Part shown: positions 1-60,191 of the stretch, piece by piece | How positions within the stretch are numbered: position 1 is the stretch's first letter | How the letters are laid out: the number at the start of each line of letters is the position of its first letter | Origin: Candidatus Krumholzibacteriota bacterium | GTDB lineage: Bacteria > Krumholzibacteriota > Krumholzibacteriia > JAJRXK01 | Direction: 5' to 3' | DNA: 64,000 bases | Assembly: GCA_963727455.1 (NCBI GenBank) | Contig: CAVSGG010000003.1 | Location: forward strand, 96,001 to 160,000 | Translations under genes and position numbers: made by a program | The notes under the pieces: generated by a model | Seen by the model: the letters and a program-made list of their open reading frames with translations, nothing else | Databases searched by the model: none | Told to the model about the DNA's origin: nothing

Positions 1-1007
1 GAGTTCTCGTAACAAAGCGACTGCACACCGTAGACCATGCTGTAGGCATGGTAGCCCAGCATGTTCAGCGCCACCGTCACCTGCGCCGAGGTCTGCCCTG
101 TCCAGCAATAGACGAGGATCTTCTGGTCGGTGGGCAGGGTGTTCAGGGTATTGTCGGTCTGCAGGCTCGCCTTGGGAGCGTACTGCACCGCGGTGGGCAT
201 GTGGCCCGCGTTGTATTCGGCCGTGGGGAAGTAGTTCACCACGTACCAAGTTCCGTCGTCGGCCGCGATCGAGTCGTACACGTTGGAAATCCCGCGCGAG
301 TTCCAGCCGCTGCCGAACTCGTTGTAGGTACCCCTGACGTAGGCATCCGCGCGCGCCTTCAGAACGTCCAGACCGGTGCCCAAGCCGGTACCCAGCGCCG
401 GATAGCTACCAGGAGCGTTGCAGGCGCAAGGATCGGGAGTCATCCAGGTATTGTAGTCATTGGAGGTCTTTTTCATGTAGTCAGTACCGATGTAATCGGT
501 GTTCGAGGTCCAGCTGCTCATCCCGAACACCAGGTTCACGGCATCGTAGCCCGTGTCGATTCCCAAGAGATTCAAGATGGCGGTCGCGGTGCTGGCCGTC
601 TGGCCGGTAAAGCACACGTTGCAAATCACCTTGTCGGTAGGGAAGTCCCCCGCGTTGACATGGTCGATGATCTCCGAGAGCGACCAGTTCACTGCGCCCT
701 GGATGTGCGCATTGTCGTAGACCGCCGGCGAGCGCCAGTCGACGATGAAGTAATCGTCGGAGGGATCGGCGTTGCCGAAATTGGCGTCGAAGAGCGCCTG
801 GGCGGAGATGTTGACCCCCAGGCCACGGTTCGGCGTCACGTAGGTGCTCAGATAGGCGTCGGTGTAGGGAGAAACCAGCGAGAAGCCGTCCGCCGCGGGC
901 GGGGGATTCGTTCCGTTGTCGTCGTCGCTACAACCGACGAAAGCGAAGACGAGGATCATCATACTTGTGAGAAGCAGCTTGCTCCAACGACTGCGATTCA
1001 TGGTCAT
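1..1007 (-). CDS. Tandem rhodanese-domain (sulfurtransferase) lipoprotein, 3' end runs off the window
   Basis: Not in the ORF track; translated by hand. MTMNRSRWSKLLLTSMMILVFAFVGC (lipobox) ...FIVDWRSPAVYDNAHIQGAVNW ...VICNVCFTGQTAS ...YNAGHMPTAVQY ...ILVYCWTGQTSAQ. RBS GGAAAGGA; ATG at 1007 or 1001; frame stays open to base 1. Confidence 0.9.
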   Translation of the reverse strand, partial: MTMNRSRWSKLLLTSMMILVFAFVGCSDDDNGTNPPPAADGFSLVSPYTDAYLSTYVTPNRGLGVNISAQALFDANFGNADPSDDYFIVDWRSPAVYDNAHIQGAVNWSLSEIIDHVNAGDFPTDKVICNVCFTGQTASTATAILNLLGIDTGYDAVNLVFGMSSWTSNTDYIGTDYMKKTSNDYNTWMTPDPCACNAPGSYPALGTGLGTGLDVLKARADAYVRGTYNEFGSGWNSRGISNVYDSIAADDGTWYVVNYFPTAEYNAGHMPTAVQYAPKASLQTDNTLNTLPTDQKILVYCWTGQTSAQVTVALNMLGYHAYSMVYGVQSLCYEN

Positions 1008-1092: not shown

Positions 1093-2451
1093 TCACCAGG
1101 ATGAATTGGGCGCCCCGTCGGGCACCACGAGAGCTTGATTGGCCTGCTGCTCTGCTACCGGCAGAGCGGACAGGTCCGAAGCACGCAGGAAGAAGTCCTT
1201 CGCTCCGAGATGCGAGTTGTGACACGCGTCGAAGCAGCTTGTCCCGCTCACCGCCGGGTCCGGCGTGCGATCGGTACGGCGCCGGATGTTGTGCGGCGTG
1301 GCCAGCTTCCAGGTCGGTTCGCTGCTGAAGTTGGGCAGCGTGCTCATACCCCAAGCGGCATAGGTGTCGTCCACCACCGGCACGTGGCGCAGGACTACGT
1401 ACTTCTCGGAGCGGATATCCGACCTGGGGTTGTAACCGATCTTGAAGGTCTCATAGGAAGAACCCGTGATACCCTCACCCGCGTGGCATCCGTTGCAGCT
1501 CTTGTAGTTCTGGCTGTGGCAGACCTGACACGCGAACTGCGACAGATGCGTGGTGTGGTAGATGTTGTTCCAATTGGCGTCGGTGCCCGGTCCGTGGCAG
1601 TCCGTGCACTTGGCCAGCCCCGGCGCCTCGTAACGAGATTGCGTCGCGCTACCATCGCCGTGCATGTCCGCGCCGTCGTGGCAATCCATGCAACTCATGG
1701 CCAAGGGAACGCGGTGGTAGTCGGCTCCGGCATAGTCATTGTTGCCGTAGTACTCGTCTCCGATTCGCGATCCATGGCATGCCGTGCAGTTCAAGGACAT
1801 GTCCGGAGTGCGGTTCACGCGATGTGCTTTCACGAGTCCGCCGCCCACGGGCTTCGGCGAGGAGATGTGGCAATCGCCACAGCTCACATGACAGCCCCCG
1901 CAGGCCGAGCCAAAGCCCGCCATGTACGCCGCGTTATCGCTGATCTTTTGCCCCGATCGTTTTTCGAAGAGGGCATAGTAGGCAGCTTGCGTGGAGTGGA
2001 TGGCGGTCGTGTAGGTCCCTTTGGCTCCGTGGCAACTCGCCTCCAGGCAGGTATTGTTCGCGCCGTCGCTGGGATCGGCAATGAGACCAGCGTGTGCATC
2101 GTCCTTGGTGTTCTCGCCGCTCTGCCCCCCGTGGCAATAGATGCAGCCGAGGGAACCATGGGTGCTGGCCAAGAAGGCAGCACCGTCCGTACCATCGATC
2201 AGAACTTTCTTCCATCCCTCAACCTGAGGGATCGATCCGCCTCAGCCCTCCCCCGTGTCGGCGGGGAGGGTGTCGGGGAGGGCGGTGGCCATCAGCATGG
2301 CCTGGTTCGTATGGCAACCCTGGCAGGTGGCAACTTGGAGGGCGGGTCCTCCACCCCCGCCATCCCCCGAATCGCTGCTGCCGCAGCCCCAGAGGCCACC
2401 CAGCGCCAGCGATCCTGCGGCAAGCCAGAACAAGAACTTATGTGAGACCAT
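1093..2451 (-). CDS. Selenocysteine-containing multiheme cytochrome c lipoprotein (Sec70 at TGA 2242-2244)
   Basis: ATG 2451 MVSHKFLFWLAAGSLALGGLWGC (lipobox). CQGCH, then DTGEG-TGA-GGSIPQVEGWKKVLIDG continues in frame into ORF 1093-2172. 9 CXXCH plus CLEASCH and CFDACH. SECIS-like hairpin follows the TGA. Confidence 0.85.
2211..2235 (-). promoter_or_regulatory. SECIS-like hairpin for the cytochrome UGA
   Basis: mRNA: UGA GGCGGAUCG AUCCCUCA-GGU-UGAGGGAU. Perfect 8-bp stem; G-initiated loop 17 nt after the UGA. Confidence 0.75.
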
Positions 2452-2467: not shown

Positions 2468-3136
2468 TCAGCTCTTCGCCTCAGGCACGGATTGGCCGGC
2501 GGAGTCGTTTTCTTCGTTTGCGGCTTTTTCGGGGACTTCCGCCAAAAGCCCGCGCGCGAAAATCGGTACGTTGTTGCAGATGATGTCGAGAGTCTCGTAG
2601 CTGACGTCTTCGAGCCTGTTCCAGAACTCGGCATTGACCGCGCAGCCGATTACGAGTCCGACGTAACAGCGCGCGGTAATGCCGGGATCGACTTTGCGGA
2701 GTTCCCCGCTCTCGATCCGTTTCTTGAATTCCTTCGCGAGAAAGTTCACGTAGGGCATGCGGAACTCGCGCAATAACTTCGCAGCGGCTTCGTCGTCGGT
2801 GACCGAAGTCATCAGAAGCAAGCGAAGCAGCTGGGGGTCCTGCTGCGCGGTGGAGAGCAAGTGCAGCGAGGCGGCACGCAAGAGGTCTTCGACCGATTCC
2901 AAGGAGCCGAGGGTTTCCAGATAGCTGCTGATGGCCAGACCGCGCGAACGAGATTCGACGGCCTTTTCGAAGAGGTCGAGCTTGCTGGGAAAGTGTCGGT
3001 AGATGGCGGCGGCGGTGATGCCCACGTCTTCCGCCAGCTGCCGCATCGAGGTGCCCGCATACCCGTAGCGGGAGAAGTGCCGCAGGGCGACTTCCAGGAT
3101 CTGGTCCCGCCGGGACAGCTTGGACGACGCAGGCAT
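2468..3136 (-). CDS. TetR/AcrR family transcriptional regulator
   Basis: N-terminal RRDQILEVALRHFSRYGYAGTSMRQLAEDVGITAAAIYRHFPSKLDLF helix-turn-helix; stop is 17 nt upstream of the cytochrome ATG. Confidence 0.93.
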   Translation of the reverse strand: MPASSKLSRRDQILEVALRHFSRYGYAGTSMRQLAEDVGITAAAIYRHFPSKLDLFEKAVESRSRGLAISSYLETLGSLESVEDLLRAASLHLLSTAQQDPQLLRLLLMTSVTDDEAAAKLLREFRMPYVNFLAKEFKKRIESGELRKVDPGITARCYVGLVIGCAVNAEFWNRLEDVSYETLDIICNNVPIFARGLLAEVPEKAANEENDSAGQSVPEAKS

Positions 3137-4386: not shown

Positions 4387-5730
4387 TTGAGAATCCTGCG
4401 ACTCTCGCTTGGCTCGAATCTGCTCGGCCTCTTCGTCCTCGTGGCGACGGCCCTGACGCCGCTGCAGAGCGCGGCCCTGCAGGATGCGCAGGGGAAAAAG
4501 ACCACCGACGAGCTGACGCCGGTTCGGCAGCTGGCCAAGCAAGCCGAGGGCGAACCGTACTGGGCACCGCTGCTGCGCCTGCGGGAGGCCGAGGCCCAGT
4601 ACCGGGATACTCCGCAGTGGAGCGCCTACTTGCAGCTGCGCGCCTACCTCGAGTGTAAGGTGGGCGACCATCATGCAGCGTTGGCGTCCTGGGATGCGGC
4701 TTTCACCCCCCCGGATTCCGTGGGGACCCTTCCCGCCGGCATCGTGGCGCGCGATGCGCTCGCGACTTTGAGCGCGGTGGCCGATACCGCCCGGGTGATC
4801 ATGATCAACGAGCGTCATCACGCGGCCTCCGATCGCTTGCTGACCCTCGCTCTGCTTCCCATCCTGCGCGCCAAGGGCTTCCGCTACCTCGCAGCGGAGG
4901 CCTTCAATCCCCGCGACGCCGAGCTCAACGTGCGGTCCTATCCGGTGGCCGCGACGGGGACCTACCTGCAGGATCCCGTCTTTGCCGCGATCGTACGCGA
5001 GGCGCGGCGTCTGGGTTACACCCTGGTGCCGTACGAGAGCCTGCAGGGGGAGGAGGCGGGGGACGATAGCATGACCGCCCAACAGCGGCGGGACTTCACG
5101 CAAGCGAAGAATCTGGCCCGGGCGACGGTTCAGCAGGATCACGAGGCGAAAGTCCTCGTCCATGCCGGATACTCGCACGTGCTCGAGCGCGCGAGCGAGC
5201 GTTTCACCCCCATGGCCCTGTATTTCCATCAGCTTACCGGCATCGATCCGGTCACGGTCGACCAAACGCGCCTCAGCGAACGAAGCAGCCGCGAGTACGA
5301 GGCTCCCGCCTATCGCGCCTGCCTGAAGGCGGGACTCTTGAAGGACCGCGCGCTAATCTTGTTTCAGGTCAACGGAAAGCCCTACTCGCCCGCGGCCTTC
5401 GCCGTCGACTACCAGGTCTTCACTCCGCGCACACGCTACGAGGATGGGCGACCGGTCTGGATGCGCTGCGGTGGGCTGCGCCAGGCGATACGAGTCGCGG
5501 TTCCCGAGGCGGAGGACGAGTGGTGTATGGTGGAAGCCCGAGTGCCGGACGAGCCGGACGAGGCAATTCCACTCGACCGCTGCGAGCTCGAGGGAACGCA
5601 GAAGGCGATGCTCTTTTTGCCGCCCGGCAAGAAGTTCATCCTCTGGGTGCGCGATCAGGATGGAGACGTGCTGCGCAAGACCCAGATCATTAATCCCCTT
5701 CGCCAGGAAAGAGGCGAGGGAAGCAATTAG
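4387..5730 (+). CDS. Secreted hypothetical protein, probable EreA/ChaN-like fold
   Basis: Signal peptide; VIMINERHH, YLAAEAF, QQRRDFTQAKNL, VLVHAGYSHV resemble EreA/ChaN/TIKI-superfamily motifs. Confidence 0.55.
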   Translation: MRILRLSLGSNLLGLFVLVATALTPLQSAALQDAQGKKTTDELTPVRQLAKQAEGEPYWAPLLRLREAEAQYRDTPQWSAYLQLRAYLECKVGDHHAALASWDAAFTPPDSVGTLPAGIVARDALATLSAVADTARVIMINERHHAASDRLLTLALLPILRAKGFRYLAAEAFNPRDAELNVRSYPVAATGTYLQDPVFAAIVREARRLGYTLVPYESLQGEEAGDDSMTAQQRRDFTQAKNLARATVQQDHEAKVLVHAGYSHVLERASERFTPMALYFHQLTGIDPVTVDQTRLSERSSREYEAPAYRACLKAGLLKDRALILFQVNGKPYSPAAFAVDYQVFTPRTRYEDGRPVWMRCGGLRQAIRVAVPEAEDEWCMVEARVPDEPDEAIPLDRCELEGTQKAMLFLPPGKKFILWVRDQDGDVLRKTQIINPLRQERGEGSN

Positions 5731-5794
5731 GGCGCGGGGAGAACTCTGATGCCGTCAACTTGGGCTCTCGTTCCTTGGATTGCAATGGTGCTCG

Positions 5795-7840
5795 ATGAAA
5801 CTTGACTCGATGACAGAGCGGGCGAACGCTGACGACAGGAAGCGCGCGAAGGCTGCCGGCTGGCTGGCTGCGGTGTGGATTGGAGCGGTTGCGGGCTGGG
5901 TCGACGCGAGCGCTGGATTTCTCCACCCGGTGTCGACGCGTTTGCTGCTGTTCTCTCCTCTCCTCTACGGTCTTTTCGCGCTCGTCGTTTACCTTCTCGC
6001 CCGCGTCGTACTGCGATTGCTTTCCGCACTGATGGGCAATCGGGTGAGTTATTTGCGCCACATCGAGAGCCTCGCCTTGGGCGCGACCGCCGGTGCTCTG
6101 ATCCTGTTCTTCGGGGTATACTTCGTAACCACTTCCACGGTGCCCTTCTTCGCCTCACTCCGTGGCCTGCTCCTGGGATTCGTGGGGGCTACGATCCTGA
6201 GCTGGGTGGCCCTCGTGTCGGTTTCGCTCCTGGCCCTGCGCCGATATCCTACCCCGCCTCAGGATCGAGACACGCGCGCTCTCGAGCACCGCGCCGCGCC
6301 GTCCCGAGCTTTCTTTCGGCTCTGGCTGCCCTTTACTCCCCTGCTGGCCATCGCGTTCGCCTACGGAATCCTGGCTGGAATCTACTTCGCTCGCGACGGC
6401 CACCTCGCTCGCGGGCAGAGCCCGCCGCGGGGATTCGTTCTGGTGAGTCTCGACGCAGCTCGCGGTGATCACTTGACCGCCCTCGGTTACCCACGGCCGA
6501 CCACGCCGCAGATCGACAAGTTGATTTCCGGGGGTACGGCATTCCGGCGCGCCTACGTGCAGATGCCCGCCTCGGCGCCTGGCCACTCCAGCATGTTGAC
6601 CGGTCTGCCGCCGCTGTCGCACGGCGTGCTCGTAAACACGGGGGTACTCGACAATCGAATTCTGACCCTGGCCGAACGCTTACGCGGCGAAGGATTTCGT
6701 ACGGCCGCCTTCATCAACAACTACTATCTGGAGAGTCGATTCGGCTTCGATCAGGGTTTCGAGACCTTCATCGATCAGTACCGTGCTTCCCAGTTGGCCA
6801 CCTGGGACCCGCGCTTCTTGCTACGCGGGACGGCGCTCTTCCATGCCATCATCCGTGCGACTCGCCGCCCGGGCGCCCGAAACGATGATACGATCAATCT
6901 CACCCTAGACTGGCTGCGTAACCGGCCAGCCGGCGACTTCTTCGTGTTTCTGCACATCATGGATCCGCACTCCCCCTATGCGCCGCCGGAGGATCTGCGC
7001 CGGAAGTTTCAGTCGCCGGAGGACGACAGGAGAACACATCCCGTTACCGGTGAGAAGCTCGAACCGGTTCGGGACAACGCGGCCCTACGAGCGCGCATCG
7101 GCGCACTAAACCCCCATGAGATCAGCGGCATGCGCAATCTCTACGATGGCGATCTTGCGCTGGCCGATCGCAAAGTCGGCAGGCTTGTCGCTGAATTGCG
7201 GCGCCTCGGCCTATTCGACTCGACGCTTTTGATGGTCACGGCCGACCACGGCGAGGTTCTCTACGAAAAGGAACACGACTTCGACCACGGTTTCATCTGG
7301 AACGGCGATCTCCACGTTCCCCTGGTGATGAGTTACCCGGGACACGTGCCGGCTGGAAGAATCGTGGACGAAGAGGTGCCCGGCGCTGCGATCCCAGCCA
7401 CCGCCTGTGCGCTGCTCGATGTTCCCTACGAGGAACAGACCAAAGCTGGCTTCTACGGCCCGCTCTTACCCACCGGCCCATCCGAGATTCTGGCAGAGAG
7501 TTCTCCCCCTTCCGCTGAGAACGAGGAGAAAATCGTCTGCGCCCTCGCCGGCCTGAAGGACGGGAGCCGGGTCACCGCTGCCATGGGGCCGCGCTACAAG
7601 CTGATTGTCTGGCCGGACGGGCGGAGCATGCTCTACGACCTTCAGCACGATCCCTTCGAACTGACGGATCTCTGGCCGCCACAGGATTTCGGCCAGATCG
7701 AGGCCGCACGGCGCCTGCGCGAGCACCTGTCCACGTGGCTCGAGACCTCGCAAGCGCAGGCGATCGGGGAATCTCGTCAGGAGGACGACATCGACCGCGA
7801 GACGCGCCAGCGTCTGCGCTCGATCGGGTATGTTCACTGA
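5795..7840 (+). CDS. Membrane-anchored sulfatase-like hydrolase/transferase (alkaline phosphatase superfamily)
   Basis: About 5 N-terminal TM helices; LVSLDAARGDH, SAPGHSSMLTG, HIMDPHSPY, TADHGE, C-terminal LRSIGY. Start codon uncertain (5780/5795/5810). Confidence 0.85.
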   Translation: MKLDSMTERANADDRKRAKAAGWLAAVWIGAVAGWVDASAGFLHPVSTRLLLFSPLLYGLFALVVYLLARVVLRLLSALMGNRVSYLRHIESLALGATAGALILFFGVYFVTTSTVPFFASLRGLLLGFVGATILSWVALVSVSLLALRRYPTPPQDRDTRALEHRAAPSRAFFRLWLPFTPLLAIAFAYGILAGIYFARDGHLARGQSPPRGFVLVSLDAARGDHLTALGYPRPTTPQIDKLISGGTAFRRAYVQMPASAPGHSSMLTGLPPLSHGVLVNTGVLDNRILTLAERLRGEGFRTAAFINNYYLESRFGFDQGFETFIDQYRASQLATWDPRFLLRGTALFHAIIRATRRPGARNDDTINLTLDWLRNRPAGDFFVFLHIMDPHSPYAPPEDLRRKFQSPEDDRRTHPVTGEKLEPVRDNAALRARIGALNPHEISGMRNLYDGDLALADRKVGRLVAELRRLGLFDSTLLMVTADHGEVLYEKEHDFDHGFIWNGDLHVPLVMSYPGHVPAGRIVDEEVPGAAIPATACALLDVPYEEQTKAGFYGPLLPTGPSEILAESSPPSAENEEKIVCALAGLKDGSRVTAAMGPRYKLIVWPDGRSMLYDLQHDPFELTDLWPPQDFGQIEAARRLREHLSTWLETSQAQAIGESRQEDDIDRETRQRLRSIGYVH

Positions 7841-59135: not shown

Positions 59136-60191
59136 ATGAGCGAGGCCGAGCGAATCCGCCTCACCCAGTACGCCGGCGCCGCCGGTTGAGCCGCCAAGAT
59201 GAGCCCGGAGGATCTGGGCTCGATCTTGGAGGGTCTGGTCGAATTGGATGAAGATCCAAGAGTATTGGTGGGCTTTGAGTCCGCCGACGACGCCGGAGTC
59301 TATCGCCTGGACGACGAGCGCGCGTTGGTGTTTACCGTCGATTTGATCACGCCCATCGTGAACGATCCGCGCGATTTCGGACGCATCGCCGCCGCGAACT
59401 CGATCAGCGACATCTACGCCATGGGCGCAAAACCTCTCATGGCGCTGAACGTGTCCGGCTTCGAGCCCAAACTGCCCGCGCGTATCTACCGCGAGATCCT
59501 CCAGGGCGCGCGAGAAGTGACCCGAGAGGCCGGCGTGGTGATCCTCGGCGGTCACACCATCAAGGACAAGGAGATCAAGTACGGTCTGGCCGTGGTCGGA
59601 GAGGTGCATCCCGCGAAGTTCCTGCGCAACACCGGGGCCAAAGAGGGAGACGCTCTCTTGCTCAGCAAGGCCCTGGGAACCTCCGCCCTGGCTACCGCTT
59701 TCAAGAACGGCGCCTTCGACGAATCCGATTCACGCTACGGTGCCATGGTCTCCTCCATGACCCGGCTCAATCGGGAGGCGAGCGAGCTGGCTCAGGAGTA
59801 TCACGCCCGCGCGCTCACTGACGTCACCGGTTTCGGTCTGAGTGGGCACATGCTGGAAATGCTCAGCGGAAGCGAACTCAGTTTCGAGATCCGGTTGAGT
59901 GCGCTCCCGGTGCTCGAAGGCGCGCTGGAGATGCTGGAGGCGGGCTACACTTGCGGCGGCGGGGAAGCCAACCGCAAACGCGCCCTGGAAAAGATGGAAC
60001 TGCCCGAGAAAATCGAACTACCTCAGGAGTATCTTTTGCACGACCCGCAAACTTCCGGCGGTCTACTCATGGCGCTCCCCAAAAATGAAGCTTCCAAAGT
60101 CCTCACCCGCCTCAAGGCAAGCGGGCACGCGGCTGCCATCGTGGGCGAGGTCGGCGGCCCCGCCGAGCGCCCACTGCGCGTCCTGCCCTGA
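59136..60191 (+). CDS. selD: Selenide, water dikinase (selenophosphate synthetase), Sec-containing (Sec18 at TGA 59187-59189)
   Basis: RBS AAGGAGG; MSEAERIRLTQYAGAAG-TGA-AAKMSP in frame with ORF 59199; DDAGVY, AAANSISDIYAMG, GGHTI, TDVTGFGL, DPQTSGGLL. Confidence 0.95.
59194..59229 (+). promoter_or_regulatory. SECIS-like hairpin of selD
   Basis: CCAAGAU GAGCCCGGA-GGA-UCUGGGCUC G AUCUUGG; G-initiated loop 20 nt after the UGA. Confidence 0.8.

Follow-up and report, generated by a model that had tools for sequence, protein, structure and literature searches.

A predicted selenocysteine-containing 11-heme cytochrome c lipoprotein of Candidatus Krumholzibacteriota, its rhodanese neighbor, and a widespread family of relatives

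The minus strand at 2451..1093 of the window (the whole 64,000-nucleotide stretch analyzed here, from contig CAVSGG010000003.1 of the Candidatus Krumholzibacteriota bacterium assembly GCA_963727455.1, hereafter G000) holds what, judged from sequence, is almost certainly one gene for a selenocysteine (Sec)-containing multiheme cytochrome c. The strand runs from 2451 to 1093 as a single frame whose sole internal TGA lies at 2242-2244, at codon 70. An ATG at 2451-2449, preceded by AAGGGAG, opens the frame and begins the encoded N-terminus MVSHKFLFWLAAGSLALGGLWGC; a signal peptide with lipobox, the heme motif CQGCH, and a segment ending in PADTGEG then lead to the TGA (2244-2242), after which 23 sense codons (GGSIPQVEGWKKVLIDGTDGAAF) extend to a TTG at 2172, the start chosen by the open reading frame (ORF) finder for ORF 1093..2172. 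When the TGA is translated as Sec (U), the product has 452 residues and ends at a TGA at 1095-1093, and homologues span both halves in one frame. A sequence-only reading of the window had proposed this arrangement, namely, that a short lipoprotein ORF with one CXXCH motif ends at the internal TGA, that its frame continues into a heme-rich ORF with a TTG start only and without a signal peptide of its own, and that read-through gives one exported 452-residue protein with Sec at position 70, which annotation splits into two genes. Translation in one frame confirms the first two of these points and, together with the TGA column in homologous loci described below, supports the third, while the split is borne out by database homologues, most of which start just past the UGA.

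The predicted lipoprotein signal peptide comprises residues 1 to 23 (2383..2451, minus strand) and ends, after a hydrophobic stretch, in the lipobox L-W-G-C, with Cys23 encoded at 2383-2385. This assignment follows sequence pattern, and a hydrophobic region followed by (A/G/S)-C is seen in nearly all full-length homologues. Eleven heme-binding motifs begin at C43, C103, C135, C184, C191, C222, C254, C282, C308, C319, and C406; nine of them are CXXCH, and the other two are a CX4CH (C135-H141) and a CX3CH (C406-H411). The first, CQGCH (residues 43 to 47; 2311..2325, minus strand), lies 5' of the Sec codon and is conserved among full-length homologues. In an 89-row alignment of the family, 10 of the 11 motifs occupy columns with no variation or with conservation of 90% or more. 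Beyond the heme motifs and the lipobox Cys, the protein has no Cys or Sec except residue 70, and the same alignment contains no other conserved free Cys column. Conserved non-motif His residues number nine versus 11 hemes, leaving two or more hemes with either no distal ligand or one other than His. The third motif varies locally: it is CX4CH (CLEASCH, residues 135 to 141; 2026-2046, minus strand) in the window's genome and in one relative (G003) and CXXCH (CLDCH or CLTCH) in the next relatives, e.g., L017 and L018.

Homologues were sought by six-frame search of 61 genomes (G000 and 60 relatives) and by pattern scanning across prokaryotic species, with a single genome for each. The former found the protein in 20 of the 61 genomes, with an in-frame TGA within the match in 19 of the 20 and none in G049; the latter returned at least 597 stretches, of which at least 574 were confirmed relatives and the best 80 were kept. 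The Sec column could be located in all 100 loci, which are partly non-independent (L015 is the window itself, and the pair L017/L036 looks like one genome). It is TGA in 78 loci, Cys (TGC or TGT) in 20, TGG in one (L031), and the tripeptide EIR in one (L044). The Sec forms amount to 72 distinct 42-nucleotide sequences. The peptide is kept on both sides of the column as (G/D)(E/D)G-U-GG(S/E/D)(V/I/L)P-x-(L/V)E-x-W-x-K-V, the window-type flank being GEG-U-GGSVPPLEAWEKV, and the TGA-form loci come from many phyla, at 36 to 96% protein identity, with frames intact. Five of six full-length database homologues have Cys at the column, and the other listed database homologues are mostly truncated at the N-terminus, starting a few residues past Sec (e.g., MGGSVPPVEAWKKV and MPPVEAW).

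Sequence downstream of the Sec column was used for a quick maximum-likelihood tree of 95 rows, with SH-aLRT values as support and a midpoint root that serves display alone; ORFs that were incomplete, duplicate rows, and rows retaining less than 330 residues past the column had been removed. On this tree the Cys label undergoes two changes, represented by a clade of 19 Bacteroidota/Ignavibacteriota rows and by L046, which is nested among Sec forms, and the W form (L031) is sister to a Sec form. Proteins of the window's own class (L015 to L032) form two clades apart from each other, each with its own hairpin register, which suggests old paralogy or transfer; family f1 clusters with L037, L038, L043, and L070, and f2, f5, and f6 lie elsewhere. 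Three individual homologues stand out. In L031 (G049:C80), the codon is TGG (GDA-W-VG), the stem of the downstream hairpin contains a disrupting change, and SelA is encoded in the genome; Sec may have been lost here recently, or the copy may be inactive. L044, on a Bacterium BMS3Bbin03 contig (protein P0042), reads GEG-EIR-GG with the remainder of the protein conserved, and no rhodanese homologue was found within that locus. Homologue P0103 (413 amino acids) has a C-terminal extension ending in ...CHLDAELLEAVADSIPSNGGGSGEG, which resembles a second heme-1/Sec module cut at another UGA, and may be a tandem or two-Sec form.

Nine nucleotides past the UGA, a hairpin at 2214..2232 (minus strand), AUCCCUCA-GGU-UGAGGGAU, combines an 8-bp stem with a 3-nucleotide loop, and covariation identifies it as a candidate for an element of the selenocysteine insertion sequence (SECIS) type. 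When the 72 distinct Sec sequences are aligned without gaps, the helix pairs columns 13-20 with columns 24-31 past the UGA; 80.6% of its 576 cells are paired, six of the eight pairs show changes on both sides, and 29 cells are compensatory. Pair 15-29, for example, is GC in 38 Sec sequences, AU in 7, and CG in 7. The observed pairing values were reached by none of 500 shuffles on four of five measures. Sliding the 3' arm by one to three columns left 38 to 53% of cells paired, a control biased toward the structure because the structure was derived from these same sequences. A cleaner control is provided by the 20 Cys sequences, in which the helix is 40% paired, no better than in their own slid versions. 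Loop positions G21 and U23 are invariant among the Sec sequences; G21 falls at the third codon position of Pro, Gln, Glu, and Ala codons and is variable among Cys forms. Residues also swap (VPPLEAW, VAPLEPW, VPPLEVW) where pairs 15-29 and 16-28 switch among G-C, C-G, and A-U. An alternative register pairing columns 16-23 with 27-34 was considered and is unsupported across the whole Sec set, and an Rfam scan of 2100-2300 gave matches at chance level only. The hairpin is predicted to be a SECIS-type element for recoding of UGA 70, apparently maintained by compensatory change.

Genes for Sec synthesis and insertion are present in the same genome. G000 encodes SelA (378.9 bits) and a 718-residue open frame with the C-terminal winged-helix domain of SelB (35 bits), and the window itself contains selD (59136..60191, plus strand; TIGR00476, 351.7 bits, with one TGA inside). 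SelD is itself Sec containing, reading ...YAGAAG-U-AAK with Sec at codon 18, and standard ORF calling would truncate it at this TGA (59187-59189). Across genomes, SelA is present in all five TGA-form genomes examined, from five differently labeled lineages, versus none of five Cys-form genomes. Assignment of the TGA at 2242..2244 as Sec, within a GEG-U-GG motif, is accordingly based on the alternation of TGA and Cys, the covarying hairpin, the co-occurrence of SelA, and the machinery genes.

The cytochrome gene sits between a TetR-family regulator gene 16 nucleotides upstream of its start (2468..3136, minus strand; Pfam TetR_N, E 7.4e-16) and, about 85 nucleotides past its stop, a gene for a double-rhodanese lipoprotein whose 3' end lies beyond the window (1..1007, minus strand; Pfam Rhodanese, E 1.8e-18, two stretches). 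Both rhodanese active-site loops, CFTGQTA and CWTGQTS, are intact; the full gene can be seen at L035:11925-13025 on the minus strand, and a convergent topoisomerase I gene follows it. A rhodanese homologue is adjacent to the cytochrome gene on the same strand in 85 of the 100 loci, mostly downstream and, in Chloroflexota, upstream, and several of the 15 loci without one lie at contig ends. In L081 and L089, rhodanese and cytochrome form a single ORF joined by a Pro-rich linker. These arrangements make functional coupling of the cytochrome to the rhodanese probable. NCBIfam models do not class the rhodanese as an ExtH equivalog. TetR homologues are found directly upstream in 21 of the 100 loci, all in the window's own class. 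The fusion ORFs (L081:3-2039 and L089:2-2161) lie on Chloroflexota contigs, and fusions of this kind are a possible reason why JGI applies the name "thiosulfate/3-mercaptopyruvate sulfurtransferase" to fragments that consist of cytochrome alone. Farther along the window, an ORF at 4387-5730 (plus strand) has a weak ChaN/heme-binding-like match below the cut-off (E 2.7e-4), and 5780-7840 (plus strand) encodes a membrane-anchored sulfatase-family protein.

Standard models say little about the cytochrome itself. The Pfam cytochrome c7/c3 models PF14522 and PF14537 score below their gathering thresholds (23.5 versus 24.8 and 23.6 versus 25), the only NCBIfam match is ExtM at 16.7 bits versus a cut-off of 800, and a PDB sequence search returned no matches at E<=10. 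An AlphaFold2 model made from the 89-row alignment has a mean predicted local distance difference test score (pLDDT) of 83.4 and a predicted template modeling score (pTM) of 0.80, with low confidence in the signal peptide, the linker, and the Sec loop. The top Foldseek match to the PDB is 1sp3, the octaheme tetrathionate reductase (OTR) of Shewanella (E 0.025, with no match at E<=0.001). Against 48,161 representative chains, VIA-align placed 1sp3_A first (Z 8.1; root mean square deviation, 4.5 Å; 269 aligned residues; model residues 88 to 452), followed by HAO-type enzymes (Z of 4.0 or less) and by weak matches to OcwA and the Carboxydothermus undecaheme protein (Z 3.3). An OTR profile was assembled from six true OTR genes in genomes of the same class, and hhalign aligned the family to it with a probability of 98.3% (E 1.2e-14, 187 columns). 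Hemes 3 to 9 of the family pair in order with OTR motifs 1 to 7, and distal His residues are aligned (family/OTR, H152/H39, H246/H184, H264/H203, and H302/H250). The relation surfaced only through VIA-align and hhalign; the order of motifs, the distal His residues, and the fold match together indicate that the family is a remote branch of the OTR fold, and we consider an OTR-superfamily fold for the cytochrome core very probable. Relative to OTR, there are two extra N-terminal hemes and one inserted heme, and hemes 1 and 2 and Sec lie on the N-terminal extension.

Membership in the OTR family proper was rejected. TIGR04315, with a cut-off of 375 bits, reaches at most 22.9 bits in this family (22.9 and 16.7 on two orthologous loci) and has no match on the window gene, whereas true OTRs in the same class score 552 to 619 bits and 17 of the 61 genomes have one above the cut-off. 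In the six OTRs, a loop of the form G-K-x-N...N-N-F-C-I between heme motifs 1 and 2 is invariant; according to Mowat et al. (2004), its Lys reportedly ligates catalytic heme 2 and its Cys lines the active site. At L125:1501-2853 (plus strand), in a Thermodesulfobacteriota metagenome-assembled genome (MAG), a true OTR (584 bits) has TGA at the invariant active-site Cys (NNY-U-V), so that Sec next to a catalytic heme occurs in the OTR superfamily. TIGR04315 is also listed as a selenoprotein family in a 2026 review (PMC13188914). We infer that Sec70 serves heme 4 (C184-H188), the equivalent of OTR heme 2. In the model, Sec70 is on a glycine-rich loop of low confidence, which is probably mobile.

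The closest functional precedent is MccSep/ExtKL (GSU2937-2936) of Geobacter sulfurreducens, a Sec-dependent polysulfide and selenite reductase in which a His/Cys heme adjoins the Sec that attacks the substrate (PMC13510729). As of 2026 it is the sole characterized Sec multiheme cytochrome, and it is the long-sought sulfur reductase of Geobacter. Like the window protein, MccSep is an exported multiheme selenoprotein whose gene has an in-frame UGA, with a SECIS-like hairpin behind it, at which annotation splits the gene in two. Sec in each protein lies in a short loop that contains Gly, and each gene has a rhodanese gene (ExtH in Geobacter) nearby. The differences are nevertheless considerable. 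MccSep has five hemes rather than 11, its U325 is on a C-terminal Ig-like domain whereas Sec70 precedes heme 2, its heme-ligating free Cys (C239) has no conserved equivalent in the window family, and it is a soluble periplasmic tetramer rather than a predicted lipoprotein. Membership in MccSep/ExtKL was likewise rejected, in that NF040886 (cut-off, 250 bits) has no match at the window gene or its orthologues at E<=0.01; nor is it among the hmmscan matches of the window protein at E<=1, and its matches elsewhere in G000 reach at most 32 bits. The distinction from ExtKL that the sequence-only reading had drawn is thereby upheld. MccSep homologues were gathered by DIAMOND with an MccSep query and a requirement for five heme motifs, and the supplementary table includes genuine late-Sec MccSep types from Krumholzibacteriota and none from Calditrichota or Ignavibacteriota, where the window family is common (PMC13510729). 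MccSep structures are not among the fold matches, which were drawn from the PDB to 2026-04-08, a release that may not contain them. Among selenoproteins related to heme, the 2026 review names ExtKL, the GSU2204 family, and OTR (PMC13188914); models of all three are absent from the hmmscan matches of the window protein at E<=1.

Other systems invite comparison as well. With OTR (1sp3; TIGR04315), the window family shares a remotely homologous heme core, candidacy for chemistry at S-S bonds, and the alternation of Sec and Cys, which in OTR affects the free active-site residue; it differs in its three extra hemes, its predicted lipoprotein anchor, its near-obligate rhodanese neighbor, and its lack of the Lys...NNF(C/U) loop. 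In Wolinella succinogenes, Sud is a periplasmic rhodanese-type polysulfide-sulfur transferase that feeds polysulfide reductase (Psr). That system resembles the present pair, as proposed here, in joining a rhodanese sulfur carrier to a respiratory sulfur reductase, although Psr is a molybdopterin enzyme and the partner here is a Sec multiheme cytochrome. TsdA and SoxAX similarly place a single reactive chalcogen at a c-type heme for thiosulfate/tetrathionate chemistry (PMC13510729), but they are diheme proteins with Cys rather than an 11-heme protein with Sec, and PDB sequence search, Foldseek, and VIA-align gave no sequence or fold match to them. As the proposed reductase, the window family would work by chemistry similar to that of MccSep and OTR while belonging to neither family.

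We explain the locus as encoding a predicted lipid-anchored, exported 11-heme cytochrome c of 452 residues with Sec70, an OTR-type core, and a rhodanese partner, and we assign this explanation as a whole a probability of roughly 0.8. What the protein does is a separate question, for which substrate, direction of reaction, and the role of Sec70 are drawn from analogy with MccSep, OTR, and Sud-type rhodaneses. On that footing, the Sec cytochrome may be a molybdenum-free, Sec-dependent reductase of S-S bonds or sulfane sulfur, a proposal to which we give somewhat less than an even chance. In the mechanism envisaged, polysulfide or thiosulfate would donate sulfane sulfur to the rhodanese, which would carry it as a Cys-persulfide, or else the substrate would bind directly; the Sec70 selenolate on its mobile loop would then attack the S-S bond of the persulfide or of a free substrate (tetrathionate or polysulfide); and two electrons delivered via the heme chain would reduce the Se-S adduct, with release of sulfide. 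With thiosulfate as the sulfur donor, the pair would amount to a molybdenum-free thiosulfate reductase. A broader version, which we hold only tentatively, is that the family constitutes an undescribed and very widespread respiratory class of molybdenum-free, Sec-dependent sulfane-sulfur/thiosulfate reductases on an OTR-type core, in which the GEG-U-GG arm replaces the ancestral Lys/Cys loop of the active site. In such enzymes, the mobile N-terminal arm would shuttle between the rhodanese persulfide and the catalytic heme.

Several observations weigh against one or another part of this account. At the Sec column, L031 (W) and L044 (EIR) have neither Sec nor Cys, yet both genomes have SelA, which implies that the residue is dispensable in some lineages or that these copies are inactive; the sequence-only reading had named a non-Cys residue in homologues as counting against it, and these two loci do so weakly. 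When the 48 nucleotides past the Sec codon were shuffled among synonymous codons, the shift was moderate (mean z, -0.90 for 75 Sec sequences and -0.13 for 20 Cys sequences; window, -1.11), indicating that the conserved peptide P-x-L/V-E-x-W itself accounts for much of the hairpin, and in one clade of the window's own class the hairpin is shifted by 3 nucleotides (CCCGAGCU-GGA-AGCUUGGG). The machinery that had been presumed is in place as far as selA, selB, and selD are concerned, but no tRNA-Sec was found in G000 by Infernal with RF01852, by aragorn, or by blastn with the tRNA-Sec of a relative. The best RF01852 match there scores 43.4 bits versus a gathering score of 47 and lies on a tRNA-Leu, and none of the 39 tRNAs listed by aragorn is a tRNA-Sec. 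RF01852 matches at 71.6 to 73.3 bits in all five nearest relatives, four of which belong to the same genus, and the G000 assembly consists of 18 contigs at 88.85% completeness with 6.68% contamination; we take the missing tRNA-Sec to be an assembly gap. A genome lacking tRNA-Sec was likewise among the points that the sequence-only reading had named as counting against it, and here, too, the weight is slight and does not outweigh the other evidence. As for the structure, the pLDDT is 59 for the block of residues 61 to 70, and the Lys...NNFC loop of OTR has no counterpart in the aligned segment (residues 142 to 183), which contains neither that Lys nor that Cys. Finally, no gene for a quinol dehydrogenase or other electron donor adjoins the cytochrome gene in G000.

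Alternatives to Sec at the TGA account for the data poorly. If the codon were a true stop, a monoheme lipoprotein would be followed by a separate multiheme cytochrome initiated at TTG 2172, which is exactly the result of standard ORF calling and is in line with the majority of database entries, which consist of the C-terminal piece alone; the actual terminator of the gene is also a TGA. A C-terminal piece made in this way would, however, lack the signal peptide that a c-type cytochrome needs. True termination would also leave unexplained why peptide conservation crosses the TGA, why the column holds Cys in 20 loci, why the covarying hairpin occurs only after TGA forms, and why, among the genomes tested, TGA forms are confined to those with SelA, and we find it scarcely credible. 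The expectations of the sequence-only reading that the UGA would align with UGA or Cys (98 of 100 loci, both flanks conserved) and be followed by a 3' SECIS (the covarying hairpin) have both held. That reading had also allowed for a sequencing error. Such an error, or a pseudogene, might be suspected in a MAG with this level of contamination, one relative of which (L031) has TGG; a contig from a different sample (run X2), however, spans 2129-2400, free of indels and of listed base differences, and shows the same TGA region, which excludes an assembly error. Runs X3 and X5 yielded no pieces over 2100-2400, and pieces from X4 end beside the TGA. With TGA in 78 loci of many phyla, all with intact frames, the reading as pseudogene or error is effectively refuted.

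The alternatives to a sulfur reductase concern what an intact Sec cytochrome would do. OTR reduces tetrathionate, nitrite, and hydroxylamine, and the window protein could act in this classical manner, reducing a soluble substrate at an open heme, with Sec tuning the pocket and the rhodanese accessory or detoxifying. OTR is indeed the closest match in both fold and profile, and one or more true OTRs have Sec in place of the active-site Cys, but the Lys/Cys loop is absent, the near-obligate rhodanese neighbor and the fusions point to sulfane-sulfur handling, and the separate true OTR paralogues within the class suggest a distinct role; such an activity is unlikely. The reaction might also run in the oxidative direction, as a Sec-assisted oxidation of thiosulfate, sulfide, or persulfide in the manner of TsdA or SoxAX. 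Rhodaneses also serve sulfur oxidation pathways. A lone free chalcogen beside hemes recalls TsdA and SoxA, and the authors of the MccSep study call both reactions reverse-related (PMC13510729). Neither PDB sequence search, Foldseek, nor VIA-align matched TsdA or SoxA, however, most carriers belong to anaerobic lineages of sediments (Dehalococcoidia, Anaerolineae, Calditrichota, and KSB1), and 11 hemes suit a respiratory-chain reductase at least equally, making the oxidative direction rather improbable. A role in reducing or detoxifying metalloids such as selenite or tellurite gains some appeal from the selenite reductase activity of MccSep (PMC13510729), from the very weak match (16.7 bits) to ExtM of the selenite/tellurite operon as the sole NCBIfam hit, and from the implication of the rhodanese ExtH in selenite handling (PMC5877670). 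It is improbable given that the ExtM score is far under the 800-bit cut-off, that wide spread in sulfidic habitats favors abundant sulfur substrates, and that no porin or other ext genes lie nearby. Lastly, a predicted 11-heme lipoprotein with weak matches to OcwA and the Carboxydothermus undecaheme protein, and with nine conserved non-motif His residues for 11 hemes such that a non-His ligand is possible, might be an electron conduit, for instance in extracellular metal reduction, with Sec as a heme ligand or redox tuner rather than a catalyst. Sec is costly and otherwise occurs at catalytic sites, the coupling to the rhodanese would be left unexplained, and the best match is an enzyme (OTR) and not a conduit, and we regard this role as decidedly improbable.

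The Sec cytochrome family is found in at least 574 species-level genomes from more than 10 phyla, in sediments, wetlands, and aquifers, and its profile collects 222 clusters at 50% identity (E<=1e-30). Of the 120 best database homologues, the majority lack everything up to and including Sec and begin no more than a few residues past it, and about 30 of the best 150 cluster representatives, counted by eye, start at profile positions 73 to 77. Cut at the UGA by gene callers, the protein loses its signal peptide, heme 1, and Sec and enters databases as a cytoplasmic "hypothetical" protein. No published description of an 11-heme Sec cytochrome family was found in the literature on Sec, multiheme cytochromes, OTR, and Krumholzibacteriota, including the passages of the 2026 review consulted here (PMC13188914). 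Sec multiheme cytochrome reductases as such are known, from MccSep and Sec-type OTR; what is new relative to these is the sequence family, the heme number, the Sec-bearing element, the predicted membrane anchor, and the near-obligate rhodanese.

In sum, the locus represents what we propose to be a second Sec cytochrome family, unrelated to MccSep and accompanied by a sulfur-carrier partner, in lineages without a known sulfur reductase. Sulfur respiration in Chloroflexota, Calditrichota, Krumholzibacteriota, and others thereby becomes directly testable. With regard to enzyme evolution, the catalytic chalcogen would be borne on a different structural element than in OTR. If the family is indeed a widespread class of Sec-dependent reductases, the anaerobic sulfur cycle would contain a major sink or source that has so far gone unrecognized, and the prokaryotic selenoproteome a large hidden share.

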